Of a DNA stretch of 35,345 nt, positions 3,873 to 30,857 are shown piece after piece. Positions within the stretch are counted from its first letter, which is position 1. Each line of letters begins with the position of its first letter. A program made the position numbers and the translations under genes. This DNA comes from a virus (taxonomy: Duplodnaviria > Caudoviricetes). The stretch covers positions 1 through 35,345 of IMG/VR virus record IMGVR_UViG_3300017716_001911; one strand, given 5' to 3'. The notes beneath the pieces are model-generated. The model had not been told where the DNA came from and ran no database searches. It was given only the letters and a program-made list of their open reading frames with translations.

Positions 3873-5054
3873 ATGAAAATTGAACGTAGATTAACACATC
3901 TTGAGGCTATTGCTTTAGGTTTTGAAGTGAAACAAAAGTATAAAGAGGGCAACCCGAAATATAGTTTGTCACCCGACGAAATTAACCAACTCGGAAAACT
4001 AAGGGAACTACACAAAACACAATTTAAAGAGGTTAAACGTACTTTAAACGAAAATGGAAAAGTAATATCTACAATCGAAAAACTAAGCCCTAAAGAGTTA
4101 ATCGATATTCCTTTAAACCACGAAATTAAAAGAGTTTCTACAAATGTTTCAACCCAGCAACAATGGGTAATTACTGAGCCTATAAAAGGAGAAACTAAAA
4201 AAGATATAGAAGAATTAAAAACATTACTTTTAAGCGATTTAAAGCAATATTCTCCAAAATACAACACTTATATTAGAGAAGAAGTAAACGAGGCTCATTT
4301 ATTAGTTATTGATCCAGCAGATATACATATCGGCAAATTATGTAGTGCGTTTGAAGTTGGTGAAAATTATAACAATCAAATAGCAGTACAAAGAGTTCTA
4401 AATGGTGTTAATGGAATTTTAAACAAAGTTAGTAGTTTAAATATTGATAAAATATTATTCGTAATCGGTAACGATGTTTTACATATTGACAACCCAAAAC
4501 GAACTACAACAAGCGGAACACCACAAGATACGGACGGAATGTGGCACTCTAATTTTTTAATAGCTAAACAATTGTATGTAGATATTATTGAAAAATTAAT
4601 ATCTGTTGCTGATGTTGATGTTGTTTTTAATCCGTCAAACCACGATTATACAAATGGTTTCTTTTTAGCACAATTAATAGAAACGCATTTTAGAAATTGT
4701 GATAATGTAAAATTTGATTGTGCAATTTCACATAGAAAATATTTTCAATATTATAATAACCTTGTTGGAACTACTCACGGAGATGGAGCAAAAATGTTAG
4801 ATTTACCAATGTTAATGGCTACAGAAGCACCGAAAGAATGGAGCGAAAGTAAACATCGTTATATTTATGTGCATCATTTACATCATAAATGGAGTAAAGA
4901 CGTAATGAGCGTATGTGTTGAGGGTTTACGCTCTCCAAGTGGTACAGATAGTTGGCATCATAGAAACGGCTACGAACACGCACCAAAAGCAGTTGAGGGT
5001 TTTGTTCACCATAAAGAACACGGACAAATTATGCGAATTACACATATTTTTTAA
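3873..5054 (+). CDS. Calcineurin-like metallophosphoesterase
   Basis: DIHIG, GNDVLH, NHD, HGD and HHLHH motifs in canonical order. Confidence 0.82.
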   Translation: MKIERRLTHLEAIALGFEVKQKYKEGNPKYSLSPDEINQLGKLRELHKTQFKEVKRTLNENGKVISTIEKLSPKELIDIPLNHEIKRVSTNVSTQQQWVITEPIKGETKKDIEELKTLLLSDLKQYSPKYNTYIREEVNEAHLLVIDPADIHIGKLCSAFEVGENYNNQIAVQRVLNGVNGILNKVSSLNIDKILFVIGNDVLHIDNPKRTTTSGTPQDTDGMWHSNFLIAKQLYVDIIEKLISVADVDVVFNPSNHDYTNGFFLAQLIETHFRNCDNVKFDCAISHRKYFQYYNNLVGTTHGDGAKMLDLPMLMATEAPKEWSESKHRYIYVHHLHHKWSKDVMSVCVEGLRSPSGTDSWHHRNGYEHAPKAVEGFVHHKEHGQIMRITHIF

Positions 5055-5452: not shown

Positions 5453-5610
5453 AAATAAGCATTGAAGCACACGACAAAACACACACAACCGAAACCGATT
5501 TTTATAGTTTAACTACTGATGAAGTAGCGGAAATTGTAACTAATTTATTAGTTTGCGTAGGTTATACAAAAGAGTCAATTATTAATGCATTTAAAGAAAT
5601 AGAATTATGA
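5449..5610 (+). CDS. Small hypothetical protein (53 aa, MKISIEAH...)
   Basis: ATGA overlaps with both neighbours. Confidence 0.6.
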   Translation: MKISIEAHDKTHTTETDFYSLTTDEVAEIVTNLLVCVGYTKESIINAFKEIEL

Positions 5611-6934: not shown

Positions 6935-7195
6935 ATGAGTAGAGAAGATTTAGATTTTCTAAACCCAAACGAGATTGAGGGTATAGAACCAAACGAACCG
7001 CAAACGCTACAAGAGTGTTTAGACTTTGCAAGAGAGTTCGATGATTACGAACCTTTAGAAAATGCGATTTACGAAACCGAGAAAAAGATTGAATTAGCAC
7101 AAGAATTGCTTAAACAATATATTGACGAATGCGCACAAATGACAAACGGAATTGTCAAAAGTAGATTTACTAAAATTTTAAATGTATTGAAATGA
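6935..7195 (+). CDS. Hypothetical protein
   Basis: ORF in tightly packed operon. Confidence 0.7.
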   Translation: MSREDLDFLNPNEIEGIEPNEPQTLQECLDFAREFDDYEPLENAIYETEKKIELAQELLKQYIDECAQMTNGIVKSRFTKILNVLK

Positions 7196-7443
7196 AACCA
7201 ACACTTTTTTTAATCGGAATGATTTTATCCGCTCTCGGGATATTAACTGGTATATTTTACGACACGCACTATTTTATATTTCTATTTATCGGACTTATTT
7301 TGATACTGATAAAAGGAACGACAAACACTAACGATTTTACGTGTAAGTTTGCCGAATGGTATCTACACGAACTTATAATCAATAAATCAAAACTAACAAC
7401 AAAGGAATTATTAAACAAATTTAAAAATGAATATTATGAGTAA
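7192..7443 (+). CDS. Two-TM membrane protein with C-terminal FAEW-type domain
   Basis: Two hydrophobic helices then KFAEW...TTKELLNKF. Confidence 0.7.
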   Translation: MKPTLFLIGMILSALGILTGIFYDTHYFIFLFIGLILILIKGTTNTNDFTCKFAEWYLHELIINKSKLTTKELLNKFKNEYYE

Positions 7444-8179
7444 ACCAACATTACAAGAAGTAAAAGAGTATTTTAAAAATGCTAAAGAGGTAATATGCAA
7501 TGAGAATAAAAAACTAGGTGAAATTTTTGAAATTGACACAACCTCAATTAAGTATCTAAACAAGTATTCAAGTCGAATTGTTTGTAATTCTATTAAAAAT
7601 GATACCTCTTACGTTTCTTTATTTCATAATGGACAATACGCCGAAATAATATCTTACAAAGAACCACTTTACCAACTAACCGCAAAAGAGATTAAACACG
7701 CTTACGAAAATCCGCAATGGTTAAAAGATACTTTTAAAGAGTGTTTTAAAACGGAGTTGGAAGTTGGGAAATGGTATAAAAGAAAAGGTGAGTTATTAGT
7801 TTGGAATGGAGGTAAGGATACTTACGGATTTACCCAAAATGGTTTTTTTAGCAATACTATGGCTTGTACTTATATAGATAATAATGAACCAGCCCCAAAA
7901 AAAGAAGTAGAAGAGGCACTTGTTAAAGAGGCTATTAAGAGGGGGTTTAAAGAGGGTGTTCATATTCATAGACCTTTTTGGAACGATTTAAAAGATTGCA
8001 TTATTGATAAAGATAATTTTCCAGAAGACATGGACTATTTTTATGACTTTAGAAAAGACTATTTAGAAGTAAAGGGTTTTGTAGTTTACTCAAAAGGTCA
8101 ATGGGCAGAAATACTAACGCCCACCTACACAATAGCCGAAGCAGAATCTAAGTTTAACATTAAAATCAAAGCCGTTTAA
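7436..8179 (+). CDS. Hypothetical protein
   Basis: About 250 aa; start at 7436 or 7427. Confidence 0.75.
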   Translation: MSKPTLQEVKEYFKNAKEVICNENKKLGEIFEIDTTSIKYLNKYSSRIVCNSIKNDTSYVSLFHNGQYAEIISYKEPLYQLTAKEIKHAYENPQWLKDTFKECFKTELEVGKWYKRKGELLVWNGGKDTYGFTQNGFFSNTMACTYIDNNEPAPKKEVEEALVKEAIKRGFKEGVHIHRPFWNDLKDCIIDKDNFPEDMDYFYDFRKDYLEVKGFVVYSKGQWAEILTPTYTIAEAESKFNIKIKAV

Positions 8180-8191
8180 TTACGGCTTTTT
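8168..8191 (+). terminator. Intrinsic terminator
   Basis: AAAGCCGT-TTAATT-ACGGCTTTTT. Confidence 0.75.
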
Positions 8192-8265
8192 ATTTAGAAT
8201 GAATTTAAATAAGATAATAACTTTAAAAAAACTATTAAAAAGTTTTTAAATGTAAAAAAGGGTTG

Positions 8266-8273
8266 TATATTTG
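8266..8273 (+). promoter_or_regulatory. Bacteroidota -7 promoter box; likely drives the operon running through array 1
   Basis: TATATTTG after a terminator, before ATG 8308. Confidence 0.65.
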
Positions 8274-8307
8274 TACTCAGATAATAACAATTAAAAAAAT
8301 AGAAATT

Positions 8308-8523
8308 ATGACAACTAAAGAAAAATTAAACAAAATGTTAGAATGCGCTTATAATGAATTAAGCGTTGTTTTTAATAGTGATGGCAATGTTTTAACAAAA
8401 AAAGAATTAAAGCCTTTTGCAATCAGAATTGTTTTAAATAAAATAAATTTTGCGATACAAGTATGTCAAGATAAGAAAATAGAATATAATAATTTATCAG
8501 AAATAAAAAACTTAATTTATTAA
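8308..8523 (+). CDS. Hypothetical protein
   Basis: ATG 8308 with aaatt leader preferred over TTG 8263. Confidence 0.65.
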   Translation: MTTKEKLNKMLECAYNELSVVFNSDGNVLTKKELKPFAIRIVLNKINFAIQVCQDKKIEYNNLSEIKNLIY

Positions 8524-8524
8524 T

Positions 8525-8680
8525 ATGAAAAAAAGAGGCAGAACAGAAGTAGACCCTAACGAGAAAATAACACTCGTTAGGTTGTGGGTTAAGAAATTAA
8601 CCATAAACACATTAGGCGAGGAAAACATAAAACAAGAGTGCGCCAAAACAATCGAAACAATGTTAAACAATTTAAATTAA
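8525..8680 (+). CDS. Small basic protein, possible RHH-type regulator (51 aa)
   Basis: Read by eye: MKKRGRTEVDPNEKITLVRLWVK... Confidence 0.55.
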   Translation: MKKRGRTEVDPNEKITLVRLWVKKLTINTLGEENIKQECAKTIETMLNNLN

Positions 8681-8686
8681 AAAGTT

Positions 8687-8836
8687 ATGCCAACAAAAAA
8701 ATACGAAATACTTTTAGATAATAAAGTAATTGACACATCTTATTCTTATTTATCTTTTTGTAGTGTATTAGATTACTATACAAGAATATATTCAGAATTA
8801 GGTAGAGTAACAACTAAAATAACTGACTTAGTATGA
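8687..8836 (+). CDS. Small hypothetical protein (49 aa)
   Basis: Read by eye; ATGA overlap with the next ORF. Confidence 0.55.
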   Translation: MPTKKYEILLDNKVIDTSYSYLSFCSVLDYYTRIYSELGRVTTKITDLV

Positions 8837-8982
8837 CACCACCAAAAACACCAAAAGAAGTTATTTTAAGCGAACACTACAAAGAAGTATTATCTTACTA
8901 CGAAATCGTTCCACAAGTGATAATAGACGCTTTTAAACGTGACGTAGAAGAGATACGAAAAGAAAACCCGATTTATCAATAA
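8833..8982 (+). CDS. Small hypothetical protein (49 aa); its stop codon is the TAA of the first array TAAC
   Basis: Read by eye: MTPPKTPKEV...NPIYQ*. Confidence 0.6.
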   Translation: MTPPKTPKEVILSEHYKEVLSYYEIVPQVIIDAFKRDVEEIRKENPIYQ

Positions 8983-9051
8983 CGTTTCGGTGCTTGTAGA
9001 TGCCAGCCTACACGCATTGTATTTTCGGCTGGTAGCTACAAACACCTGTTA
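8980..9051. repeat. attC-like hairpin 1 (72 bp)
   Basis: TAAC gtttc GGTG c TTGTAG a TGCCAGCC ... GGCTGGTA g CTACAA a CACC t GTTA. Confidence 0.8.
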
Positions 9052-9083
9052 TAAGAAGTAGCGGGTAATTAAAACTAAATATT

Positions 9084-9299
9084 ATGAAATTAAAAGATAA
9101 GTTTGAAAAAGTACTAAAAAATTGTAAACCTCATTTTTTAAAATTTGACACAAATGATTGTATAGAAATTTGCGATAATTTTGCCATTAATTTTGCAGAA
9201 TGGTTAGTAATTCAATATAATGAAGATACAATATATGCCGAATATAACACTAAAGAGTTATTAGAAATATTCAAAAAATCTTATGAAAACGAATCGTAG
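9084..9299 (+). CDS. Cassette 1 cargo, FAEW-type hypothetical protein
   Basis: Flanked by GTTATAAGAAGTAGC (9048) and GCTATTTCTTATAAC (9299-9313). Confidence 0.75.
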   Translation: MKLKDKFEKVLKNCKPHFLKFDTNDCIEICDNFAINFAEWLVIQYNEDTIYAEYNTKELLEIFKKSYENES

Positions 9300-9309
9300 C
9301 TATTTCTTA

Positions 9310-9434
9310 TAACGCTTTGCCACTTGGTGCGGTTGGGGCTAAATAAGCCAAATTTTTAACTACAAAAACAATAATTATGACACAAAATAATAATCAAATT
9401 AAACCTGATGCCCAATCGCTCCAAATGGCTGTTA
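9310..9434. repeat. attC-like hairpin 2 (125 bp)
   Basis: TAAC gcttt GCCA c TTGG t GCGGTTGGG ... CCCAATCGC t CCAA a TGGC t GTTA. Confidence 0.8.
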
Positions 9435-9946
9435 TGCAACGTTGCCCTAGTTTTGTCGATGATAACAAAACTCATTATGTTATTTATGTTGAATATATAA
9501 ATAAACGTCCTCATTTAGTAAATTCTGTTTCATATATACCAAATGCTGTAAATGGTGCTTATTGGAGATTATACCATTGGGATTTTGAAATAAATGATAA
9601 TGATTCAAAAGATTTAATTGCATACAATAGTGGCTCTGGAGGTTGTGAAAAAGAAATTATAGCACCAAATTTTATTAAAAATAAAAATGTAGCAGAAATA
9701 TGGATTGCTAATGGAATTGAGTTGCAAGGTAAAGGAGCGAATTTTACTTTAATCAATGAATTGATAGAAATAGAAAACTATTTTAAAAAAAGCAAAAATC
9801 CTTTTGAAATTGCTGAAATAGTAGATAATATCGAATATTGTCCAAAATGCAAATCTTATTCTCGAGATTTTTGTGATACGCATTTATATTATCACGATGA
9901 TGGAACTATCCGATATAAAGGTAATCATAAGCACGTTGTGTACTAA
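9377..9946 (+). CDS. Cassette 2 cargo, hypothetical protein with C-terminal CxxC...C-x2-H zinc motif; starts inside the hairpin loop
   Basis: CPKCKSYSRDFCDTH; inverted repeat GTTATGCAACGTT (9431) / AATGTTGCATAAC (9945-9957). Confidence 0.75.
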   Translation: MTQNNNQIKPDAQSLQMAVMQRCPSFVDDNKTHYVIYVEYINKRPHLVNSVSYIPNAVNGAYWRLYHWDFEINDNDSKDLIAYNSGSGGCEKEIIAPNFIKNKNVAEIWIANGIELQGKGANFTLINELIEIENYFKKSKNPFEIAEIVDNIEYCPKCKSYSRDFCDTHLYYHDDGTIRYKGNHKHVVY

Positions 9947-9953
9947 TGTTGCA

Positions 9954-10080
9954 TAACGCATGTGGCTTTGTCTTGTTGCCGAAAAATAAGACCTAATCTT
10001 TAAATTAAAAACAAAAAATGGAAAGTACAAAACCAACATTAAATGAAGCCGAAAACGGCAATAAGTCAAAACCGATGTTA
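9954..10080. repeat. attC-like hairpin 3 (127 bp)
   Basis: TAAC gcatg TGG c TTTG t CTTGTTGCCG ... CGGCAATAAG t CAAA a CCG at GTTA. Confidence 0.8.
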
Positions 10081-10095
10081 TAAGTAGCTTTTATT

Positions 10096-10332
10096 ATGGG
10101 ATTACAAACGGAAGAAAACAAAGAATTGAGTGAAAAATTAGGAAAAATAGTTTCTAAAAATCCTAGTAAATGGATAAAAGAAAGTAATGAAAGGTCTCGA
10201 ATTAAACAGATTGAAAAAGATAAAGAAATGATAGATTTTGGCTTATGGTTAACAAAAAAAGGAAATTATAATATTAATAATTGGAATAAAACAATGTCCG
10301 AAATGTTAGAAACTTATAAAAAAGAGAAATAA
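10096..10332 (+). CDS. Cassette 3 cargo gene A, hypothetical
   Basis: Inside GTTATAAGTAGCTTT (10077) / AAAGTTACTTATAAC (10567-10581). Confidence 0.7.
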   Translation: MGLQTEENKELSEKLGKIVSKNPSKWIKESNERSRIKQIEKDKEMIDFGLWLTKKGNYNINNWNKTMSEMLETYKKEK

Positions 10333-10334
10333 TT

Positions 10335-10556
10335 ATGACACAAACAATTGAATGTAAATGCGGTAAAACTTTTGCTGCATCAAGTGTGCCTTATTGCTAT
10401 GAAAGCGAAGATTGGCAAGAAAGTTTAAGAGAATACGTAAAACAAGGATGTACCGTCTCTTTAAAAGAAGATAACGATGTGAAATTTGAACAGTGTACTT
10501 GTGACGAATTAGACGAACTTAAAGATATTTTTGATACCGTTATTCTTTTGGAGTAG
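10335..10556 (+). CDS. Cassette 3 cargo gene B, small Cys-rich protein
   Basis: CKCGK...C...CTC. Confidence 0.7.
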   Translation: MTQTIECKCGKTFAASSVPYCYESEDWQESLREYVKQGCTVSLKEDNDVKFEQCTCDELDELKDIFDTVILLE

Positions 10557-10577
10557 CGGTTGTCCTAAAGTTACTTA

Positions 10578-10610
10578 TAACTATAGTATAACACTTACTA
10601 ACTTATGCAA
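10578..10610. other. Array-terminal attI-like site 1
   Basis: TAACTATAGTATAACACTTACTAACTTATGCAA; 26/33 identical to 21278-21310. Confidence 0.65.
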
Positions 10611-17018: not shown

Positions 17019-17870
17019 ATGAGTAACATACAATTATCAAACGAAGAAAACTACTACATTGTAAAACGTGATGAAATAAACGATGTTTTAAAGTTACCAA
17101 TAAAATCATATTTACAAAGTAGCTACGATTTTAAAAAAATATCAGTTTTAAAGAATGAGCCTAACTTTGTTATGTTAATTGCTGGTTGGTGTGTTCAAAC
17201 CTCTACACTAATGCAAATTAAAAAACCAATAGACCAATTTGTTAAAAAAGATATTTTTACAATGCTAACGGGTTACTGGTCTATTTTAAGTTTTGAAGAG
17301 TTAATAAAGGCTTTTGAATTAGAACGTTTTGGATTGTATAAAGAGAAAACAGAACATTACCAGCTATTTGATTGTAATTATATTTCACAAGTTCTTAAAA
17401 AATACCAGCAATGGAAAAGAGAAAACAAAATGGAATTAAAAATCGAACCATTAAAAAATGAAATTAAAATGAGCGATGCAGAAAAACAAAAAATAATGAT
17501 TGCGGCGGTTAATAAAAAATATTCAGAGTATTTAACTACAAATGAAATCGAAGAGCCGTTTAATCATATTTTCAAAGAATTAATCGAAATAGGCAGAATT
17601 AAGATGCCAACACCTGAAACACCAAAACTTGAAATGTATTATCAAAATAAATTAACTGAGGCACACGCACAAGTTTTAAGAGAGTACGGAATGAAAAAAT
17701 CAATTGATGCAATCGAAAGAAATAAAATAAAAGAAATTATGAACGCATTAATTAACAACACCGAAAACCAAGATGCAAAAAGTAAAATTGAAGTAAGAGC
17801 AAAGAAACTTGTTTTAATAGATTTCTTTAACTCACAAAAACAAAAAGGTTTAACTAAAATTATTGAGTAA
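17019..17870 (+). CDS. Hypothetical protein, possible helicase loader/replication partner
   Basis: Directly downstream of the initiator; synteny only. Confidence 0.45.
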   Translation: MSNIQLSNEENYYIVKRDEINDVLKLPIKSYLQSSYDFKKISVLKNEPNFVMLIAGWCVQTSTLMQIKKPIDQFVKKDIFTMLTGYWSILSFEELIKAFELERFGLYKEKTEHYQLFDCNYISQVLKKYQQWKRENKMELKIEPLKNEIKMSDAEKQKIMIAAVNKKYSEYLTTNEIEEPFNHIFKELIEIGRIKMPTPETPKLEMYYQNKLTEAHAQVLREYGMKKSIDAIERNKIKEIMNALINNTENQDAKSKIEVRAKKLVLIDFFNSQKQKGLTKIIE

Positions 17871-18241
17871 TGGATGCAAGGGAAAAAAATAAAATCAAAT
17901 GTAAATTACACTACGAAAGAACAAAAGGAAATCTAACACCTGAGCAAAAAGAACGTCGAAAAGAATCAGCACGTAAAGCGCAAAGAAACTTTTACTATAA
18001 AAATAAAGAACTTTGTAGATTAAGAATATACGTTACACGTTACAGAAATGATATTAAAAAACAATTAGCAGAAAATAGATTAACTTTGTTAGATAGTTTA
18101 GTAACGAAAAAAGAAATAGATTTTATAAAATCATTAGATACTATTTCGTTAATTAAAAAAGCTCCACGACTAACAATGTGGAACAAAGTTTTAAGTCAAT
18201 GGACTTTTAAAGATTTCAATAAACTACTTAGTTTAATTTAA
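17870..18241 (+). CDS. Basic hypothetical protein
   Basis: 123-aa ORF. Confidence 0.7.
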   Translation: MDAREKNKIKCKLHYERTKGNLTPEQKERRKESARKAQRNFYYKNKELCRLRIYVTRYRNDIKKQLAENRLTLLDSLVTKKEIDFIKSLDTISLIKKAPRLTMWNKVLSQWTFKDFNKLLSLI

Positions 18242-18244
18242 AAA

Positions 18245-18568
18245 ATGAGAAAAATTAATATAAAACCTTTATCCGTTAATGAATGTTGGCAAGGGCGTAG
18301 ATTTAAAACTAAAGAATATAAGCAATATGAAAAAGATTTACTTTTAATGTTGCCAAATATAAAACTAAAAATCCAGCGTGTAAGCATTAATATTGTTTTT
18401 GGGTTCAGTAATTCACTTTGTGATATAGATAATCCTTTAAAACCATTTTTAGACGTATTACAAAAGAAGTATAACATTAATGATAGGGATATTTACAATT
18501 TAAACGTAACTAAAAAGGTTATAAAAAAAGGTGAGGAGTTTATAAAATATCAAATTAAAGAGATATGA
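18245..18568 (+). CDS. rusA: RusA-family Holliday junction resolvase
   Basis: PLSVN..W and DIDNPLKPFLDVL...NDRDI catalytic motif. Confidence 0.85.
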   Translation: MRKINIKPLSVNECWQGRRFKTKEYKQYEKDLLLMLPNIKLKIQRVSINIVFGFSNSLCDIDNPLKPFLDVLQKKYNINDRDIYNLNVTKKVIKKGEEFIKYQIKEI

Positions 18569-18702
18569 GTAAAAAACAAGAGCCTAAATACCCAATAGAC
18601 CAAAAAATAAAAGACCTACACAAAGCAATAGTTCAAGGCGATAAAGAAACTAAAGATAAATTGCAGAAATATATAGATTTCGTGTATTGGGGAATTAAGT
18701 AA
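18565..18702 (+). CDS. Small hypothetical protein (45 aa)
   Basis: Read by eye; ATGA overlap with rusA. Confidence 0.55.
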   Translation: MSKKQEPKYPIDQKIKDLHKAIVQGDKETKDKLQKYIDFVYWGIK

Positions 18703-18733
18703 AAAAATATTAGATTTATTAAAAACTTATTTA

Positions 18734-18741
18734 TATATTTG
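18734..18741 (+). promoter_or_regulatory. Bacteroidota -7 promoter box; likely drives the operon containing array 2
   Basis: TATATTTG. Confidence 0.65.
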
Positions 18742-18745
18742 CAGA

Positions 18746-18826
18746 GTAGAGTCGTAGCTACAATTAAAAACATTACAAAAATTCGCTCTACGATAAGGAC
18801 TACGACCCTTTGAATAGAGCGTTTTT
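18746..18826 (+). ncRNA. Kissing-loop leader RNA 4
   Basis: Loop GTCGTAG (18751) complements loop CTACGAC (18800); outer stem CGCTCTA/TAGAGCG then T tract. Confidence 0.65.
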
Positions 18827-18837
18827 ATTTTTAAATT

Positions 18838-19041
18838 ATGAACCAAAAAAACGAAATACTCTGGACAATTTTCAGAGAGCAAAACACAACACAAGTAAGA
18901 TTTGCAAAATTAGTCGGAATGGACAGACCTTGCAACGTAGGTAAATGGCTAAGCGGTCAACAAGAAATTAGTTATAAGAAATTAGAACACATTGCGGATT
19001 GCTTTGGGTATAAATTGAATGTAACGCTTGAGAAGAAATAA
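18838..19041 (+). CDS. Cro/CI-type (XRE) HTH regulator
   Basis: TQVRFAKLVGM...VGKWLSGQQEISYKKLEHIADCFG. Confidence 0.85.
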   Translation: MNQKNEILWTIFREQNTTQVRFAKLVGMDRPCNVGKWLSGQQEISYKKLEHIADCFGYKLNVTLEKK

Positions 19042-19056
19042 TAAGCGCATCTCGTA

Positions 19057-19182
19057 CAACGTTTCACGGCTTTAAGAAGTAGCGGAAAAGTACACAAAAA
19101 TTATTAATTAAACACAAATTAACCAAACACAAAAACAACATAAAATTAAGCCTTAAACCGCTATTTCTTAAAACCGATGTTA
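19057..19182. repeat. attC-like hairpin 4 (126 bp)
   Basis: CAAC gtttca CGG c TTTAAGAAGTAGCGG ... CCGCTATTTCTTAAA a CCG at GTTA. Confidence 0.8.
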
Positions 19183-19209
19183 GTAGCTGTGTTTTTATTC
19201 AGAAAAATT

Positions 19210-19530
19210 ATGTCATACAAAAAAAGAGAAGAACTATTCTCAAAATTAGAAGAGATTAGAATTGATATGGAAAAATACTTGAATGAGTATTTACTTCAAT
19301 TGTTAAAAAACAAAGAATTAACAGAATATGAATTAGAAATACTATTTCAACCATTCGATGAAGACGCACCCGAATTAGTAAAAGTTCATAGTGTAAATGA
19401 TAAAGGAGAATTGTTATTGACTTTTGAGTATTTTGACGGAACTATTCAAAATGAAGAAGTAGAAATGGAACAATTAAGATTTGATGCTTTATTTCAATTA
19501 ATAGAACTTCTTGAGCAGTTAGTTGAGTAA
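19210..19530 (+). CDS. Cassette 4 cargo, acidic hypothetical protein
   Basis: ATG 19210 (or 19177); flanks GTTAGTAGCTGTGTT / AACATAGCTACTAAC. Confidence 0.75.
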   Translation: MSYKKREELFSKLEEIRIDMEKYLNEYLLQLLKNKELTEYELEILFQPFDEDAPELVKVHSVNDKGELLLTFEYFDGTIQNEEVEMEQLRFDALFQLIELLEQLVE

Positions 19531-19539
19531 CATAGCTAC

Positions 19540-19669
19540 TAACGTTATCTCGCTTTGTGACTGTTACGGCACTAAGCGAACTGTAAATTTTCGGCTACCG
19601 AAAAACGTGAACGTAACAACAAAATTTAATATTAACTGAAATTGCCGTAATAGCACAAAACGAGTGTTA
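19540..19669. repeat. attC-like hairpin 5 (130 bp)
   Basis: TAAC gttatc TCG c TTTGTG a CTGTTACGGCA ... TGCCGTAATAG CACAAA a CGA gt GTTA. Confidence 0.8.
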
Positions 19670-19696
19670 GCGGTTGTTTTTTTATTCAACTAAAAA

Positions 19697-20002
19697 ATGA
19701 AAATAACAGAAAAAAGAACGGTTACAGAGTTTAAAAACGTAACTATTGGCAGAAAATGTGATGTTTGCGGAAAAACACACGAAGGAGACAGATTTCCTGA
19801 TGAATGGCATTCATTTAATCATCATCACGATGAATGGGGTAATGACAGTTGTGATTCTTATGAATATCACGAGGTGTGTTCGCCTGAATGTTATTGGACT
19901 AAATTTAAAGAATGTGTCGAAGATTTAAACGGACGGTCAAGTGCAAAAGTTGATGAGTTTGAAATTCAATTTGCACGTATGTTGCTCGAAAATAACCGCT
20001 AA
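19697..20002 (+). CDS. Cassette 5 cargo, zinc-binding hypothetical protein
   Basis: CDVCGK...VCSPEC; flanks GTTAGCGGTTGTTTT / AAAATAACCGCTAAC; stop codon is the TAA of TAAC. Confidence 0.78.
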   Translation: MKITEKRTVTEFKNVTIGRKCDVCGKTHEGDRFPDEWHSFNHHHDEWGNDSCDSYEYHEVCSPECYWTKFKECVEDLNGRSSAKVDEFEIQFARMLLENNR

Positions 20003-20127
20003 CGTTATACGGCTATACGATGGTTGGGATTAAGTAAGCCGTAATTTTTCCGATTAACACAAATTATCCCGACACAAACAAAACTTTAAATTAAACAATT
20101 AACCCAACTATTGTATAACCGTTGTTA
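20000..20127. repeat. attC-like hairpin 6 (128 bp)
   Basis: TAAC gttata CGG c TATACGATGGTTGGG ... CCCAACTATTGTATA a CCG tt GTTA. Confidence 0.8.
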
Positions 20128-20152
20128 GCAGTAGTTATAATACTCAATTAAA

Positions 20153-20416
20153 ATGGCATACACTCACGAACAATTAGAAAAATTAGGATTTAAAAAAGTT
20201 GAAGACAAAGAAACTGGAATTATTGATTTTGTAAATAAAGTTACAAGCAATGTTCATTTGGTTTTAAGCCCAATGTTAGAAGAATTATTTATTTGGGTTT
20301 TAGAAGATGGTGGCGATGAAGATTCAGATGGAACTAAAATAATTATTGATACTTCTGATTTGAAAAAAGCAATAAAATTATGTGAAATGATTGTCGGTGT
20401 TGACGATGGTTTCTAA
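20153..20416 (+). CDS. Cassette 6 cargo, hypothetical protein
   Basis: LEKLGFKK motif; flanks GTTAGCAGTAGTTAT / ATAATTACTGCTAAC. Confidence 0.75.
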   Translation: MAYTHEQLEKLGFKKVEDKETGIIDFVNKVTSNVHLVLSPMLEELFIWVLEDGGDEDSDGTKIIIDTSDLKKAIKLCEMIVGVDDGF

Positions 20417-20426
20417 TAATTACTGC

Positions 20427-20556
20427 TAACGTTTCTCGGCTTTGTCTAGTGCCGTAAATTCAAGACAGAACTTAACAAATAAATCCAAAATTATGAATTT
20501 AAAAAAGATTTTTACAAAAAAAGACCGAGCAAAGGCATTAGTCAAAACCGATGTTA
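20427..20556. repeat. attC-like hairpin 7 (130 bp)
   Basis: TAAC gtttct CGG c TTTG t CTAGTGCC ... GGCATTAG t CAAA a CCG at GTTA. Confidence 0.8.
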
Positions 20557-20768
20557 GCAGTAGTATTTTATCTGATGATGATTTTAAACAATTTGAAAAA
20601 CTATTCGATAAAATTTCAGCACATTTAGAACATCCAATGAGTATTTGTCAAGGTGTAAATGATGGTTATAGTATCGGAGTTTATGATATAAAAACAGGAG
20701 AATTGAAAGCACAGGCAATGAGTTACAACGTCAAAAATTGCGTAAATCTTATTAAGGAACGTCTTTAA
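20493..20768 (+). CDS. Cassette 7 cargo, hypothetical protein starting inside the hairpin loop
   Basis: aaaattATG at 20493 reads through GAT GTT AGC; flanks GTTAGCAGTAGTATT / AATATTACTGCTAAC. Confidence 0.7.
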   Translation: MNLKKIFTKKDRAKALVKTDVSSSILSDDDFKQFEKLFDKISAHLEHPMSICQGVNDGYSIGVYDIKTGELKAQAMSYNVKNCVNLIKERL

Positions 20769-20777
20769 TATTACTGC

Positions 20778-20902
20778 TAACGTTATGCTGGTAGGCGATG
20801 TAGCGGACTGATAAGCCAAAACTTTCAGTTCTGCCAATAATAAACAAGTATTCACAATCTTTAAATTAAGCCTTAAACCGCTATATCGTTTACCAGCGGT
20901 TA
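20778..20902. repeat. attC-like hairpin 8 (125 bp)
   Basis: TAAC gttat GCTGGTAGGCGATGTAGCGG ... CCGCTATATCGTTTACCAGC g GTTA. Confidence 0.8.
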
Positions 20903-20953
20903 TGCGTTCGGCTATTTTATCACAATATTAATCGTTAAAAAATAATAAATAAA

Positions 20954-21280
20954 ATGAAATTAGAATTATCAGAAAATGTTTTGGCTCAAATAAATGAGCA
21001 AAATGATAAAGTAAATGAATTATGTGGTTATCCATCAAATGATGTCCGCAACTGGTTTAAAGATTTACAAGAAAAAGAAACCGTAACTGTAGGCTACAGA
21101 GCTTCTTGTGGAAGCACAGATAAAACTATGAAGATTTATAGAATATGGATTAAAGTAACTAAAATACTTAAAAAAAACGGTGTCAAATTAATAGAGGAAA
21201 ATGTACCTACTATTAACAGAAGTCCCACAAGTGCGAATGGTTTTTGGAACGAGGTTCGTTTCTCCGTAGCTGACGCATAA
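20954..21280 (+). CDS. Cassette 8 cargo, hypothetical protein
   Basis: Flanks GTTATGCGTTCGGCTA / TAGCTGACGCATAAC; stop codon is the TAA of TAAC. Confidence 0.75.
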   Translation: MKLELSENVLAQINEQNDKVNELCGYPSNDVRNWFKDLQEKETVTVGYRASCGSTDKTMKIYRIWIKVTKILKKNGVKLIEENVPTINRSPTSANGFWNEVRFSVADA

Positions 21281-21310
21281 CTATTCACTAAGTCTTACTA
21301 AATTATGCAA
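21278..21310. other. Array-terminal attI-like site 2
   Basis: TAACTATTCACTAAGTCTTACTAAATTATGCAA; 26/33 identical to 10578-10610. Confidence 0.65.
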
Positions 21311-21523
21311 TCAATTAAAAATCAAAATATTATGAATAAAGAACTAACACCGATGCAAGAGTTGATACAAAAAAATAGAAAATCAATTAAACTACTTCAA
21401 GAAATAAAAAATAAAACTGAATTTGAAAGAGGAATGTTAGCTTATGCACACGCAATAGAAACTGATATAATTATTTTATCCGGCCAAAGCGAGGAGTTAA
21501 TTAAATTTTTAAATGAGTTATAA
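21305..21523 (+). CDS. Hypothetical protein
   Basis: TPMQELI motif; alternative start at 21332. Confidence 0.65.
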   Translation: MQSIKNQNIMNKELTPMQELIQKNRKSIKLLQEIKNKTEFERGMLAYAHAIETDIIILSGQSEELIKFLNEL

Positions 21524-21545
21524 CCAAGAATTAAAAATAATTTTG

Positions 21546-21553
21546 TAAGTTTG
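21546..21553 (+). promoter_or_regulatory. Bacteroidota -7 promoter box upstream of terminase
   Basis: TAAGTTTG. Confidence 0.55.
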
Positions 21554-21580
21554 TGGATACTAAACTAGTATATCAGTAGT

Positions 21581-21844
21581 ATGGCAAGACCTAAAGGAGA
21601 AGAAAAGCTAGGCGGTAGACAAAAAGGAACGCCAAATAAAACAACAACAGACGTTCGTGAGCGATTCCAATTTCTTGTTGAGGGCAACCTTGAACAATTA
21701 CAATCTGACTTTAACGAATTAAAACCAGTTGAAAGAGTAAAATATACTTTAGAAATGGCAAAATTCTGTTTACCTACTTTAAAGTCAGTTGATTATAAAG
21801 GAGAAATACAAGTATCTAAAAGACCAAAAATTGAGTTCGATTAA
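21581..21844 (+). CDS. terS: Terminase small subunit
   Basis: GGRQKGTPNK motif; directly upstream of the large subunit. Confidence 0.75.
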   Translation: MARPKGEEKLGGRQKGTPNKTTTDVRERFQFLVEGNLEQLQSDFNELKPVERVKYTLEMAKFCLPTLKSVDYKGEIQVSKRPKIEFD

Positions 21845-23108
21845 ATTTTCAAAGAAGTACGAACCATTATTTCAGTTACTAAAATCTAACGACAAATATA
21901 AAAATGTTGATACGGTTTTAGTTTCTGGAGGTCGTGACTCAGGAAAAACATTTGGCGTTGGTTGTGTTTGTGTTTTAGCAACTGCAGATTGGAATCATAG
22001 ATTATTATATACTCGTTATACGATGAGTTCAACAGATAACTCTATTACGGCAGCACTCGAAAATAGAATGGAGTTATTTGGTCTGTTAGACGAGTTCGTT
22101 TATGCAAATCACGATTATTATCATAAAAACTCAAAAGGTAAGATTTCAATCACTGGTCACAAAACAAGTTCAGGAAATCAATCCGCAAAATTAAAGTCAC
22201 TTGAAGATTATTCAATGTTTGTTACTGAGGAGGGTGAGGAGTTACCAAGTTATGAAGATTGGAAAAAGATAAAACTTTCAATTCGTGCTAAAGACGTTCA
22301 ATGTATAAATGTAATCGTATTTAATCCACCAACAAAAAAGCATTGGTTATACTCACAATTTTACGAGGGCGTTCCCGATGGTTTTAATGGAGTGATTGGA
22401 AATGTAATGTACATACACACAAACTATTTAGACTTAGGAAAGGATAACATAGCAATACAAAATTGGAATGAATACGAGCGTTTACGTTTGGTTTACGAAT
22501 ATTACTTAAGTTTATCAAAAGAAGAACGTGAGCAACTTCCAAGTAAAACAATACGAGAATACAAAGAGTATAAGAATATTGTTTTAGGAAGTTTCAGAGA
22601 TACTGCAGAGGGCGTTATATTTGATTACACAATTGGGGATTTCCCAGAAGACAATACTGGTTTGGTATTCGTAGGAGCAGACCAAGGATTTACACATCCT
22701 ACTGCATTTGTAAAAATTTGTGTTGATAGGAAAAATAAAAAGCTGTACGCTAAAGAATTGTTTTACAAAACAAATCAAACGACATCACAAATTTACGATG
22801 AGGTAAAAGAGCAATGTGGATATACTCGTGTTTGGTGTGATAGTGCTGTACCGATGTTTATAGCTGATTTAAAACGCAAAGGATTAAATATTTATAGCTG
22901 TAAGAAACCAAAAATAAATGATTCTATTAATGCTATTTTAGATTATGAGTTAATAATTGATAAAAATTCATTAAATTTACAAACAGAATTAGATAATTAT
23001 AGTTGGAGTACTAAAGATAAAGAAGTACCAATAGATGATTTTAACCACGCAATAGACGCAATGCGTTACGCATTTACAGAAGCAACATCAAAACGTTATA
23101 AAGCATAA
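21831..23108 (+). CDS. terL: Terminase large subunit (PBSX/SPP1-like); start uncertain (TTG 21831 or 21789)
   Basis: Walker A GGRDSGKT, Walker B FVTEEGEE, FNPP, nuclease GADQG and DDFNHAIDAMRY. Confidence 0.92.
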   Translation: MSSIKFSKKYEPLFQLLKSNDKYKNVDTVLVSGGRDSGKTFGVGCVCVLATADWNHRLLYTRYTMSSTDNSITAALENRMELFGLLDEFVYANHDYYHKNSKGKISITGHKTSSGNQSAKLKSLEDYSMFVTEEGEELPSYEDWKKIKLSIRAKDVQCINVIVFNPPTKKHWLYSQFYEGVPDGFNGVIGNVMYIHTNYLDLGKDNIAIQNWNEYERLRLVYEYYLSLSKEEREQLPSKTIREYKEYKNIVLGSFRDTAEGVIFDYTIGDFPEDNTGLVFVGADQGFTHPTAFVKICVDRKNKKLYAKELFYKTNQTTSQIYDEVKEQCGYTRVWCDSAVPMFIADLKRKGLNIYSCKKPKINDSINAILDYELIIDKNSLNLQTELDNYSWSTKDKEVPIDDFNHAIDAMRYAFTEATSKRYKA

Positions 23109-23112
23109 TATT

Positions 23113-23358
23113 ATGAAAGAACACTTATTACATTTTTTTCCATTCTTACACAAAGAATTTAGAAAGTTAGACGAAAAGGAATTACAAAGCGAAGAAACAT
23201 TTAAAGAATTGTTTCCGAATGAGCCGATTGAATTGTATAAACTTAGAACTATTTATGTTTATCAAAATGCGGATGAAGCAAAGGTATTTGTAACTGCTGA
23301 GCAAAAAGAAACGTTTCAAAAATTAGAACGAAAACCAAAAGGAAATGCCAAAATATAA
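23113..23358 (+). CDS. Hypothetical protein
   Basis: 81-aa ORF. Confidence 0.65.
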   Translation: MKEHLLHFFPFLHKEFRKLDEKELQSEETFKELFPNEPIELYKLRTIYVYQNADEAKVFVTAEQKETFQKLERKPKGNAKI

Positions 23359-23806
23359 ATCAACAAACGATATTCCGTATTTAAAGTTTATGGAGTTTTC
23401 GCAAGAGATTGCAGAGAAACCAAAAGATGCTGAGTTTATACTTGAAAAAACAATAGAGTATTTTTACCCAGAGGTTAAAGATAACTTTGATTTGTATATG
23501 CAAGAGTTCGCAATTGCTTTAAATACTGAAAATCCAAAATACATTCCTTATTTTGTGAGATTGTCAAAGCTAAATAAAGCGGGTGGGTTTATCGATGCTG
23601 TAACGTATGCAGACAATAAACTTTACAAAGAGTTATTTCAAAGTATTTTAAAACCTATTTATTGGTTCGGTAAAGTGGATGTTAATAAAATCACTTTGTA
23701 CGAGGGTACGAAAATAATGCAGTCTTTTATCAAAGAGTCAACGAGATTAAGAAACCTTACGAGTATCTCTATAATCCGCCACCTACGTCTTCAGTTGGCA
23801 AAGTAA
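23345..23806 (+). CDS. Putative tail assembly chaperone (short form)
   Basis: Overlapped by an open -1 frame; lies in the morphogenesis operon. Confidence 0.5.
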   Translation: MPKYKSTNDIPYLKFMEFSQEIAEKPKDAEFILEKTIEYFYPEVKDNFDLYMQEFAIALNTENPKYIPYFVRLSKLNKAGGFIDAVTYADNKLYKELFQSILKPIYWFGKVDVNKITLYEGTKIMQSFIKESTRLRNLTSISIIRHLRLQLAK

Positions 23807-23988: not shown

Positions 23989-24437
23989 TGAACGAACTAC
24001 AAATACTTAACGACTTTGTAATTAATCACTTTGAAAGTGAGAATTTAATTAATACGATTACAATTGTACCAACTATAAATATAGATGCTAACAAAGAAAA
24101 CATTTACCCATTAGTTAACATTGATTTAATTAATACCGAAGTTTTATCTAATGCTATTATCGGTTCGTATAAATTAACTATCATTACCCAACGAGATATT
24201 CAGCCAAAAAAGACTAATAATAAATTGTTAACCGATACAAATTATTTAGATAACATAAATGAAACTCACGCAATTTGTGTTAAATTTGTAAATAATATAA
24301 CGAGATTGCATAACGATGAAAATATAATGATTGAAAACCTAACCACATTAAAAGCTTTAAAAAATTTGGGTGCTGGTGGATGCGATGGATTTCAATTTGA
24401 ATTTGATTTATCGATTCATAATAAACAAAAAGAGTAA
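23988..24437 (+). CDS. Putative tail terminator/completion protein
   Basis: 149 aa, YPLVNI motif, synteny. Confidence 0.5.
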   Translation: MNELQILNDFVINHFESENLINTITIVPTINIDANKENIYPLVNIDLINTEVLSNAIIGSYKLTIITQRDIQPKKTNNKLLTDTNYLDNINETHAICVKFVNNITRLHNDENIMIENLTTLKALKNLGAGGCDGFQFEFDLSIHNKQKE

Positions 24438-24481
24438 GCTGAAAATCTAAAGAGTAAGCATAACCATGAAAAATAAAGAAT

Positions 24482-28790: not shown

Positions 28791-30857
28791 ATGGCAGAGT
28801 TCGAAGACATTAATCAAAATATAAATCTTAAATACACAACCAACGCGGATGACACCGCTAAAGAAGTTGTAAAGTTAGACGATGCACAAGAAAGCGTTAC
28901 ACGTTCAACACAAGCCAACACGAAAGCAACAAAAGAAAATACCGAAAGTCAAAAATCTTTTAAAACTCAAATTCGTGAGGCGACGCAAGACTTGTTAAAA
29001 GTGTCACAACAATATGGCGAAACTTCAAAAGAGGCGGTTGAGGCAGCTAAAAAGGTTGCACAACTTAAGGATCAAATGGGTTTCGCAAATGATTTAGTTG
29101 AGGGCTTTAATCCTGACAGAAAGTTTCAATCTATGGCAACGGCGGTTAATGCAGCAGCAGTAGCGACTTCGGGTATTACTTCGGGAATGGCTTTATTTGG
29201 TGCAGAAAATGCAGAAACCGAAAAGACACTTTTAAAGGTACAGGCTGCAATGGCTTTCAGTGATTCAATCGGACGTATCACAGAATTAACAGACGATTTT
29301 CAAAAGTTAAAAGCACAAGTAGTAAGCACGTTCACGGCATTAGCAACTACAAAGGCGGTTGATACAACGGCAACGGAAGTTAACACGGCATCCAATATAA
29401 AGAACACTGCAGCTAAAGAGGCGGGTGCAGTTGGTAGTACATTAATGGCTGGTGGCTTTACTATTCAAACAGTTGCTACAACGGCTGCAACAATAGCCAC
29501 AAACATACTTAACGCATCATTAGCGGTTTTATTAAGTCCTATTACTTTAGTGATAGCAGCTATTGCGGGATTAGTAGCGGGTATTGCTTATTTATCGGGT
29601 GCAATTGGTGACTTTAGTGGTGAGGCAGCAGCAGCGGAAAAAGCAAATTTAAAACTATCTAAAGAAATTGATAACCTCGCAAAGTCAAGTAAAAAAGCAA
29701 ACGAAGAAACTAAATTCCACAATGAAAATCAGATTGCAATGGCTAAGGCGTCGGGCGCAAGTGCTGAGGCTATTCGTAAACTAAAAGAAGAATTAATTAA
29801 CCAAGAGGTTGCAGAAAAAAACTTAAACGTTCAAAAGGCACGTTCTATTTTTTTAGACGCTCGAAGAATTGCAAGTTCAGAAGATGCAACGGACGCACAA
29901 AAAGAAACGGCAAAACGTGCTTACGAAGAATTTAAAAATCAAAATGAAATCTACGAGGATAGTATTAAAGAACGTAGAAAATTAAACGCTCAAAATCGTA
30001 TTGAAGTAAGGCAAGAAGAAACAGACAGACGAAAAGAAGCCGAAGAAAAAGAAAAAGAACATTTAAAAAAGTTACAAGACGAAAGAGATAGGGCAGTAGA
30101 AGAAGCACGTAAAAAACGTGAAGAAGATTATAAAAAACAATTAGCGGAAAAAGCAGCGTTTGACAAAGCCGTTAACGATGCAGATACAAATCAATATTTT
30201 TTAGCACAAGAGCAAAGAGTTGAAGATGCACAAAATCAATTAAAATGGCAAACGGAATTTTCAGACCTTACAACTGAAATTGCAAACAAAGAAGCCGAAG
30301 ATAAAATAAATATTGAAAAGGCGGTTGCTGAACAAAAACAAGCTATTCAAGAAGCTCAAACAAATTTAGCGGATAAGGCAGTTGGGTTTTTAAGTGCAAT
30401 AGCTGGTAAAAATAAAGCATTACAAAAAGCGGCTATTATAGCAGAAAATGCAGTAGGTATTGGTAAAATGATTATTGCAAATAATGCGGCTAATATTGGA
30501 GCTTTAGCAACACCACAAGCGATTGCAACAAGTGGAGCAAGTGCTGCACCAGTTATAGCAGCAAATAATATTTCTACTGGTTTAGGTGTTGCAACCACAA
30601 TAGCTGCAACTGCAAAAGCATTGAGCGCATTGGGAGGTGGCGGTTCGGCTGGTGGAGGTGGAGGTCAATCCGCATCAAGTCCAAGCGCATCAGGAACACC
30701 AAGCGTAGGTTTTCAAAATAGTACCGAAAACCAAATCGCAAACCAAGTTACAAATGGAATTAATACACAAGAACCAGTTAAAGCGTTCGTAGTTTCTCAA
30801 GAAGTTACAACGGCTCAAAGTTTAGATAGAAATAAAATTGAAGCAAATAGTATTTAA
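28791..30857 (+). CDS. Tail tape measure protein
   Basis: 688 aa, Ala-rich helical/coiled-coil, hydrophobic segments, C-terminal KAFVVSQEVT. Confidence 0.85.
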   Translation: MAEFEDINQNINLKYTTNADDTAKEVVKLDDAQESVTRSTQANTKATKENTESQKSFKTQIREATQDLLKVSQQYGETSKEAVEAAKKVAQLKDQMGFANDLVEGFNPDRKFQSMATAVNAAAVATSGITSGMALFGAENAETEKTLLKVQAAMAFSDSIGRITELTDDFQKLKAQVVSTFTALATTKAVDTTATEVNTASNIKNTAAKEAGAVGSTLMAGGFTIQTVATTAATIATNILNASLAVLLSPITLVIAAIAGLVAGIAYLSGAIGDFSGEAAAAEKANLKLSKEIDNLAKSSKKANEETKFHNENQIAMAKASGASAEAIRKLKEELINQEVAEKNLNVQKARSIFLDARRIASSEDATDAQKETAKRAYEEFKNQNEIYEDSIKERRKLNAQNRIEVRQEETDRRKEAEEKEKEHLKKLQDERDRAVEEARKKREEDYKKQLAEKAAFDKAVNDADTNQYFLAQEQRVEDAQNQLKWQTEFSDLTTEIANKEAEDKINIEKAVAEQKQAIQEAQTNLADKAVGFLSAIAGKNKALQKAAIIAENAVGIGKMIIANNAANIGALATPQAIATSGASAAPVIAANNISTGLGVATTIAATAKALSALGGGGSAGGGGGQSASSPSASGTPSVGFQNSTENQIANQVTNGINTQEPVKAFVVSQEVTTAQSLDRNKIEANSI

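Follow-up and report, generated by a model that had tools for sequence, protein, structure and literature searches.

Organization of the array

In the complete genome of a Caudoviricetes phage (IMG/VR record IMGVR_UViG_3300017716_001911; the whole stretch of 35,345 nt, bounded by direct terminal repeats of 123 nt, is called the window below), five small units follow one another in tandem, each made of a predicted imperfect hairpin and one short gene. This array, referred to as array 2, runs from AAC to AAC over 19058-21278, and its features are listed in Table 1 together with array 1, which belongs to the same system. Nearly all long open reading frames (ORFs) of the window lie on the + strand, and its genes include terminase, portal, endolysin, exonucleases, a NinB/Orf mediator and a RusA-like resolvase. 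In fact, all 43 records matched by the phage DNA are Flavobacterium phages, and hence the host presumably belongs to the Flavobacteriia; moreover, long near-identical pieces of the window are present in four freshwater runs from four separate studies. An earlier reading, made from the sequence only, had placed the array between a helix-turn-helix (HTH) regulator and the terminase. The regulator indeed lies to the left, while on the right a 72-aa ORF and the small terminase gene separate the array from the large terminase gene.

Table 1. Positions of the array features in the window
Feature	Position	Strand	Description
HTH gene	18838..19041	+	left flank, outside the array
Hairpin site 1	19058..19181	+	AAC...GTT, 124 nt; begins unit 1 (19058-19540)
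Cargo 1	19210..19530	+	106 aa, acidic; no family over cut-off
Hairpin site 2	19541..19668	+	begins unit 2 (19541-20000); its TAAC is the left breakpoint of the deletion in run X3
Cargo 2	19697..20002	+	101 aa, Cys/His-rich; stop is the TAA of TAAC
Hairpin site 3	20001..20126	+	begins unit 3 (20001-20427), present whole in other contigs
Cargo 3	20153..20416	+	87 aa; exists also as a free phage gene without cassette ends
Hairpin site 4	20428..20555	+	begins unit 4 (20428-20778); contains the sole upstream in-frame ATG of cargo 4
Cargo 4	20493..20768	+	91 aa from the ATG within the hairpin; recurs behind another hairpin in L355
Hairpin site 5	20779..20901	+	begins unit 5 (20779-21278)
Cargo 5	20954..21280	+	108 aa; stop is the TAA of TAAC
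Terminal site	21279..21310	+	no hairpin; AAC-T-N5-CTA..., putatively attI-like; right breakpoint of the deletion in run X3
Array 1	8981..10610	+	same system; three units; hairpins 8981-9050, 9311-9433 and 9955-10079; bare terminal AAC at 10579-10581

The hairpins, each reading AAC...GTT over 123-128 nt, stand at all five positions where the sequence-only reading had put them, and the units measured from AAC to AAC are 483, 460, 427, 351 and 500 nt long; the last AAC of the array (21279-21281) has no hairpin behind it. The detector built for these hairpins recovers seven of the eight in the window against 0.1 per shuffled 35 kb (30 shuffles), and the one that it misses, hairpin 2, carries a non-conserved 1-nt bulge. 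Among seven window hairpins two-sided changes, that is covariation, are seen at 16 of the 19 consensus pairs, and on the + strand the folding z-scores run from -2.1 to -4.1.

Besides the hairpins, the ends of the units themselves pair. The sequence that follows each GTT is the inverse complement of the one leading up to the next AAC, over 10, 10, 10, 10 and 9 perfect nt, and in units 1-4 these inverted ends extend past one G/A mismatch by four further matches. Five such end pairs of at least 9 nt are found in 19057-21310, whereas 450 equal-length pieces of order-2 Markov shuffles contained 0.30 on average and never more than 3. All five units thus have a core and an inverse core that are complementary within one cassette, as is the case in integrons. 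The cargo stops end 13, 1, 14, 13 and 1 nt before the last base of their own unit, in agreement with the claim that they lie inside or at the border of the right inverted repeat and are twice the TAA of TAAC. The first site begins CAAC, as had been pointed out, and as a unit end its left flank scores poorly, falling short of the 5th percentile for such ends (rank 64 among 1597 AAC sites).

None of the five cargos was assigned a function by Pfam, PHROGs or Atlas, and weak Pfam matches to HBL (cargo 1), a rubredoxin-like family (cargo 2) and UpxZ (cargo 4) were rejected as below cut-off. Cargo 2 is a probable zinc binder, whose nearest clusters are unnamed and mostly viral and which has a single match of 21 residues in the viral contigs. 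No relative of cargo 1 or cargo 5 was found in these contigs; eight relatives of cargo 5 at 58-82% are known, and the five scanned have no Pfam family. In unit 4 there is no in-frame ATG within 75 nt after the GTT, and the frame is therefore taken to open at the ATG at 20493, inside the hairpin.

The array ends

To the right of the last AAC in array 2, 70% identity over 54 nt is shared with the end of array 1, so that the two array ends of the window are homologous to each other. Across 46 viral array ends a loose common motif, AAC-T-N5-(A/C)TA, can be observed, with T at position 11 in 93% of them, and this motif is located behind the recombinases of host loci and in front of those of phages. 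In its form, TAA-7 nt-nTA, the terminal site is a palindrome such as tyrosine recombinases use, and it may resemble dif as well. Considering this homology together with the loose fit to the motif, the right end of array 2 is probably an attI-like element and not the plain phage backbone that the sequence-only reading had assumed for the right half of its empty site.

Deletion and relocation of whole units

For the movement of units, contigs of the four runs (X2, X3, X4 and X5) were aligned to window positions 17500-23500. In an X3 contig, 19539 is joined to 21278 with only TAAC in common, and the 1738 nt that are gone are exactly units 2-5; the joint is flanked by 102 and 279 nt and has no extra letters. 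The crossover lies in the conserved AAC triplet, as in integrons, the joint being placed to within TAAC. Exact loss of units is one of the two checks that the sequence-only reading had proposed, and it comes out in favour of that reading. Moreover, there are contigs of 2.7 and 27 kb (X3, X4) whose match to the window, at 92%, covers precisely unit 3 (19998-20430) and gives way to unlike sequence on both sides, and an X5 contig matches the window from 21279 on, preceded by 38 other letters. Another X3 contig skips 19085-19158 of hairpin 1, with unknown letters between and a side of 28 nt, which is possibly another hairpin at position 1. A second X3 joint (20600 to 21366, with a 21-nt side and 33 other letters between) was set aside, as were bins that no contig covered.

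The same picture is obtained from other viruses. Three of the seven viral homologues of unit 3 have the entire upstream hairpin, end at AAC and have different neighbours on both sides. In these three loci (L298, L117 and L302) unit 3 is whole and its upstream hairpin is 93-97% identical, while the left and downstream neighbours are at 40-60% against an inter-hairpin background with a median of 50%. In phage FCL-2 the order is likewise hairpin, gene and bare AAC. Across seven shared cargo families, counted without those pairs whose context is identical and without a self-overlap in L127, the upstream hairpin is kept in four and not in three, while a downstream element is shared in none. A classical unit, consisting of a gene with its downstream hairpin and cut at GTT, is rejected because none of the seven families shares the downstream element. 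The exact deletion and the unit-3 matches ending at AAC lead us to take hairpin plus gene, cut at AAC, as the unit. The expectation that cargo homologues carry the hairpin and flanks is borne out by the three unit-3 homologues, but not by the three families in which the upstream hairpin differs.

Cargo 3 is seen outside cassettes, too. A free gene in L299 (3001-3264) differs from cargo 3 (20153-20416) at 15 positions, where two other cassette copies differ at 23-24, and the identity does not reach beyond the stop codon on one side and a few bases ahead of the ATG on the other. These ends point to ORF-precise traffic between cassette and ordinary phage gene, in one direction or the other.

The hairpin family in phages and Bacteroidota hosts

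A search pattern taken from the window gave 91 viral loci and, from about half of the genome collection, at least 126 genome loci, and the pattern-matched loci are almost all Bacteroidota by title. The detector undercounts, with only 3 hairpins found in 36 kb of genome G001. Inside one unit the ends match at 6 of 7 nt or better in 105 of 132 viral cases and in 78 of 99 from hosts; across one hairpin, the corresponding matches are 9 of 129 and 7 of 97. The anatomy of the sites is fixed: six bases separate the crossover AAC from the stem on one arm and two on the other, which makes a 4-nt asymmetric bulge. A C/T mismatch is also fixed and is partly contained in the search pattern, while 167 of 180 viral and 200 of 236 host sites have a G/A mismatch for which the pattern made no provision. 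With a detector that favours ungapped stems, no conserved extrahelical base was found in family sites; in place of the two or three extrahelical bases of attC, pairing is ungapped at 75-99% of sites at most positions. Of the two strands, it is the one bearing the crossover AAC that has the more stable fold in 193 of 225 viral and 204 of 257 host sites.

The two groups of arrays differ in the polarity of their genes. Among 196 viral units, 158 are hairpin-first, 3 are reversed and 35 are ambiguous, whereas 149 host units comprise 100 in the classical order of gene then site, 7 hairpin-first and 42 ambiguous; two short bin contigs account for 5 of these 7. In an integron, attC follows the gene to which it belongs and recombination takes place on the non-coding strand, and in this phage neither is the case. 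The cargos differ as well. No blastp match was found between viral hairpin-first and classical host cargos, and a hydrophobic N-terminus, present in 46 of 100 cargos from hosts, is seen in 3 of 158 from viruses. Of 161 viral cargos, 27 fall into the largest cluster, and the five members scanned are all N6/N4 DNA methylases. The three viral units in host polarity (the minus-oriented 5002-5632 in L104, and one each in L090 and L127) are expected if phage and host sites are compatible. For example, the unit in L104 adjoins a terminal site and a phage recombinase and would, as expected, fit a recently captured host cassette.

Since the best folding is on the coding strand of the phage, the hairpins could be thought of as independent repeats between genes, either inserts like MITEs (miniature transposable elements with inverted repeats) or regulatory leaders of RNA. 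For 38 of 182 viral units, among them unit 4, the sole nearby start codon lies within the hairpin, and the hairpin therefore supplies translation starts as well. Many MITEs are common to Bacteroidota and their phages according to excerpts of a survey whose lists may include these hairpins (PMC11602168; the other papers below are likewise cited from excerpts). A MITE is non-coding, has terminal inverted repeats of its own and duplicates its target; here, by contrast, the matching inverted ends belong to the cargo and not to the hairpin, and coding units of hairpin and gene move whole, which largely refutes the idea. Moreover, the same strand is non-coding in hosts and unfit for an RNA role, and a scan of the window with Rfam, which gave two unrelated weak matches, found no family of such kind for the hairpins. 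We thus consider independent repeats the least probable of the explanations weighed here, and keep to hairpin and gene as one mobile unit.

A tyrosine recombinase linked to the arrays

At the bare-AAC end of the arrays, in host loci as well as in the phage contigs L087, L102 and L104, there is a gene for a tyrosine recombinase. In the sample drawn from the genus of a Flavobacterium genome, this recombinase family is present in 59 of 101 genomes. To see the linkage from the protein side, the best 30 loci were chosen by protein alone, and the gene is readable in 29. A hairpin within 1.5 kb 3' of the recombinase and in the predicted polarity is found at 14 of the 29, or 13 of the 19 with full flank; a hairpin in the other polarity or 5' of the recombinase is found at none of the 29. 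Many of these loci also have a terminal-like site, about 100-160 nt past the stop codon of the recombinase.

The linked recombinases are not typical integron integrases. All ten fall under the TIGR02249 (IntI) cut-off, with 141-214 against 265 bits, and the match to the model is split at about 180-236, with about 40 residues missing; compared with VchIntIA, the query gap has 20 residues where the chain has 62. They thus lack the IntI-specific insertion (I2 helix). In a tree of 23 rows, the host and phage recombinases group with IntI2 and apart from Flavobacterium XerC/D (100/99); the tree has an open base and long-branch warnings, and no order of descent is claimed from it.

Two alternatives concern the enzyme. 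The first is an ordinary cluster of attC sites lacking an integron integrase (CALIN), with classical attC sites on the minus strand, a true IntI elsewhere and the genes inverted in their cassettes. The AAC crossover, the complementary core ends of each unit and the attI-like bare end are integron grammar (PMC5027507), and as in a CALIN there is no integron integrase nearby: none of the 65 ORFs of the complete record matches an integrase family. In addition, Qi et al. (PMC9892861) called a site of the same family in Polaribacter phage P12002L an attC, and the grouping with IntI2, subject to the long-branch warning, goes in the same direction. However, no IntI match over TIGR02249 was found in the five array-bearing genomes any more than among the linked recombinases, whose match to the model is interrupted as described, and the stems pair with no conserved bulged base; moreover, of six sites in the excerpts, P12002L_attC1 is the only one for which joining to attI1 by IntI1 failed. 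Hence an ordinary CALIN seems improbable.

The second is that the host XerC/XerD act on the sites, as they do with dif-integrating elements and pdif modules. The palindrome of the terminal site would suit them, and CTX-phi uses XerCD on a folded strand that has no extrahelical bases (PMC4792948). Nevertheless, the recombinase fixed at the array end in both hosts and phages belongs to another family, which the tree sets apart from Flavobacterium XerC/D, and so the action of XerC/XerD is very improbable. This linked family is, in our view, quite likely to be the enzyme.

Some members and relatives of the family deserve mention. A subgroup (L204, L216 and others) has a long N-terminal extension, 580-610 aa in total, and no Pfam match lies there in L204. 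In the cultured Cellulophaga phage Ingeline_1 (L351), the stretch 7150-8792 contains a relative of the phage-type recombinase at 36%, immediately preceded by a terminal-like site, as well as remnants of degenerate hairpins, and this phage is a possible laboratory model. In an Acinetobacter plasmid (L352, NZ_CP078019; 3507-5630), tet(X3) is found 190 nt behind a short relative of the array recombinases, which has 52% identity to the host-type recombinase L240 over 65% of its length and groups with host recombinases. A terminal-site-like element with GTT at 4344-4346 precedes tet(X3), and TAAC (5550-5553) and then an apparent first arm and loop of a family hairpin follow it; the gene's own ends match at just 4 of 7 nt. 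In this layout tet(X3) seems to resemble a first cassette in host polarity. A literature search for a link between tet(X3) and an array recombinase found nothing.

Interpretation

Altogether, the array probably consists of five hairpin-gene cassettes joined at AAC by an integron-like tyrosine recombinase of Bacteroidota, which the host or another phage would likely provide in trans; the sequence-only reading had named no enzyme. That the units are mobile cassettes cut at AAC is the firmest part and is very probable; a single-strand mechanism is somewhat more doubtful, though still favoured.

Several points weigh against this interpretation. The loci were seeded with a pattern derived from the window and the detector presumes an offset of 3-4 nt, so that the features are partly built in; in addition, units of related phages are not independent. 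The deletion is known from one contig, at depth 5, in one of the four runs aligned, and the fully empty site that the sequence-only reading had predicted was seen neither in these runs nor in any locus examined. Two of the seven unit-3 homologues are free genes without cassette ends, and two more, probably from one phage, keep half a hairpin. The two array ends of the window fit the terminal motif moderately (ranks 28 and 46 of 1597 AAC sites, the latter being array 2, 21279). The enzyme is assigned by linkage alone, and the direction of replication is read solely from a positive GC skew. Finally, hairpins do not always follow their cargos: cargo 4 is almost unchanged in L355 behind a different hairpin, the cargos of L097 and L149 are at 95% where the hairpins are at 70%, the hairpin has diverged also between L127 and L141, and X2 and X5 have 8 changes restricted to hairpin 1 with the flanks unchanged.

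Concerning the empty site, a scan of the viral contigs with a single terminase protein gave no relatives, a metagenome scan with the HTH protein returned only one contig, as long as the window, and at the best 80 of 593 terminase-alignment loci (at most 66% identity) the detector found no family hairpin, which is uninformative on this question.

Since hairpins differ behind the same cargo and changes can be confined to hairpin 1, a second process must swap hairpins, for which homologous exchange in the conserved arm, or else a rare crossover at the GTT side, is the best explanation. This raises the possibility that the whole array arose by homologous or microhomology recombination between related hairpin linkers, performed by Red-like functions of the phage with no site-specific enzyme. 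The window does encode the NinB/Orf mediator, exonucleases and RusA-like resolvase, and the swaps behind unchanged cargos look like conversion in the conserved right arm. Yet the observed deletion has just 4 nt in common and ends at a hairpin-free site, relocated units start and stop at AAC among unrelated neighbours, and both the pairing of ends within a unit and the one-sided link to a recombinase are left unexplained. Red-like recombination therefore probably explains the hairpin swaps and not the array, for which we hold it to be distinctly improbable. With site-specific cassettes preferred, the sequence-only reading is supported with three amendments, namely an attI-like right end, a swappable hairpin and a start of unit 4 within the hairpin.

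The mechanism may be pictured as follows. Units are gained and lost whole at AAC, as the deletion and relocations show, and comparison shows that the same site family forms arrays beside one recombinase family, at the bare-AAC end, the recombinase-linked arrays being located in Bacteroidota chromosomes and some phages. The + strand would fold as single-stranded DNA and be cut at AAC; the fixed 4-nt bulge beside the crossover AAC, together with the fixed G-T/A-C mismatches, may mark the strand, replacing the extrahelical bases read by IntI. An exchange between two hairpins would excise circles, with the two 15-nt ends of a unit closing the outer stem, while an exchange between a hairpin and the terminal site would let the array take up further units at its terminase end (21279). 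The enzyme would act in trans, and the cargos may be expressed by read-through from upstream phage promoters. In the window the GC skew is clearly positive in 31 of 35 bins, which suggests that replication is co-oriented with the genes. Folding and excision of attC are higher on the lagging-strand template (PMC5371416), and on these two grounds we hypothesise that the mirrored layout makes phage arrays faster to shuffle than host arrays.

Relation to known systems

The system works like an integron but fails the tests for IntI and extrahelical bases. Like integrons, it has small cassettes in tandem, a crossover at AAC, core ends complementary in each unit, hairpin sites that are imperfect and fold more stably on one strand, and a hairpin-free end site beside a tyrosine recombinase; the host arrays in addition share the classical order of gene then site. 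Unlike integrons, its recombinase is below the IntI cut-off and has no IntI-specific insertion, its sites have a 4-nt asymmetric spacer and fixed mismatches instead of a conserved extrahelical base, the phage hairpin precedes its own gene so that the recombining strand is the coding strand, and no recombinase gene was detected among the 65 ORFs of this phage. As for the insertion, excerpts of PMC8138268 state that it is not fully conserved within the integron-like subgroup treated there.

Within the range of a literature search that covered few subscription papers, no description of this system was found, and the partial sighting is that of P12002L by Qi et al. 2023 (PMC9892861), who reported CALIN in virulent phages including this one. 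P12002L_attC1 is a short member of the present hairpin family, ahead of a methyltransferase gene, and the ends of this unit pair and finish at a bare AAC, as in the window. Unlike here, the excerpted text reads P12002L_attC1 as a classical attC with 'divergent directions', and it describes no reversed polarity, host arrays or dedicated recombinase. In P12002L (L305) the two arrays end in the same sequence of about 65 nt after the bare AAC (29150-29260 and 37190-37320), which is the element tested as attC2 in PMC9892861. On our reading attC2 would be a bare terminal site and not an attC.

Two further systems come close. As with attG sites (10.1101/2022.09.11.507474, from excerpts), the cassettes are far from an integrase gene, and a short double-stranded site with the same triplet would be used; unlike attG, both arrays of the window end in homologous elements that resemble the recombinase-side site and not in an arbitrary GWT. 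CTX-phi (PMC4792948) likewise has a folded single strand with no extrahelical bases, an enzyme with no I2 helix and a host enzyme used by a phage. There, however, XerCD integrates the whole phage at dif, whereas here single-gene cassettes are stacked in a phage genome. It is likely that the phage array is a variant of integron-type cassette systems, little described in Bacteroidota, and back to front with respect to host arrays.

What this window adds is the exact deletion of several units in a natural sample, and the counts for the family. The I2 helix and the extrahelical bases are held to have co-evolved, and their origin has been termed a chicken-and-egg problem (PMC4792948); a natural system of hairpin cassettes with neither makes the question of that origin testable on a single enzyme and a single site. 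The correct orientation of cassettes is regarded as rigidly set (PMC5027507), with which the opposite gene polarity of one site family in phages and hosts contrasts. A cargo that exists both as cassette and as free phage gene, identical up to the limits of its ORF, bears on the origin of cassettes. Moreover, as the recombinase is in 59 of the 101 genomes of one genus and an IntegronFinder survey of another Bacteroidota genus, as excerpted (PMC11523902), found no integrons, standard tools may overlook a large system of gene capture, to which the tet(X3) layout suggests a clinical reach. A wider proposal, whose parts we hold jointly with less than even confidence, is that Bacteroidota run a phylum-wide integron with neither I2 helix nor extrahelical bases, a living Xer-IntI intermediate; that their phages keep a separate, mirror-image pool of cassettes, rich in DNA methyltransferases and in tiny genes without assigned function, which is exchanged with ordinary phage genes at ORF-precise ends and shuffled by the host enzyme during infection; and that the same platform launched tet(X3).

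Other features of the window

The first hairpin of array 1 is a short form of 70 nt that contains another, internal stem, and coding-like sequence upstream is in frame with a TAA that overlaps the TAAC of this hairpin. At 24429-24460, at the end of a gene, Rfam DUF805b is matched at 37.5 bits against a gathering threshold of 35.6, the stem fitting poorly. A TAnnTTTG motif at 18734, which we assume to be promoter-like, was set aside as evidence of a promoter, the motif having 37 + strand occurrences in the window and being insufficient alone. The intergenic stretch 18716-18831, upstream of the HTH gene, has a predicted stem-loop with no Rfam match; it is 78% identical to an unannotated stretch in Flavobacterium vB_FspS phages and was found in 31 vB_FspS records among the matches listed.

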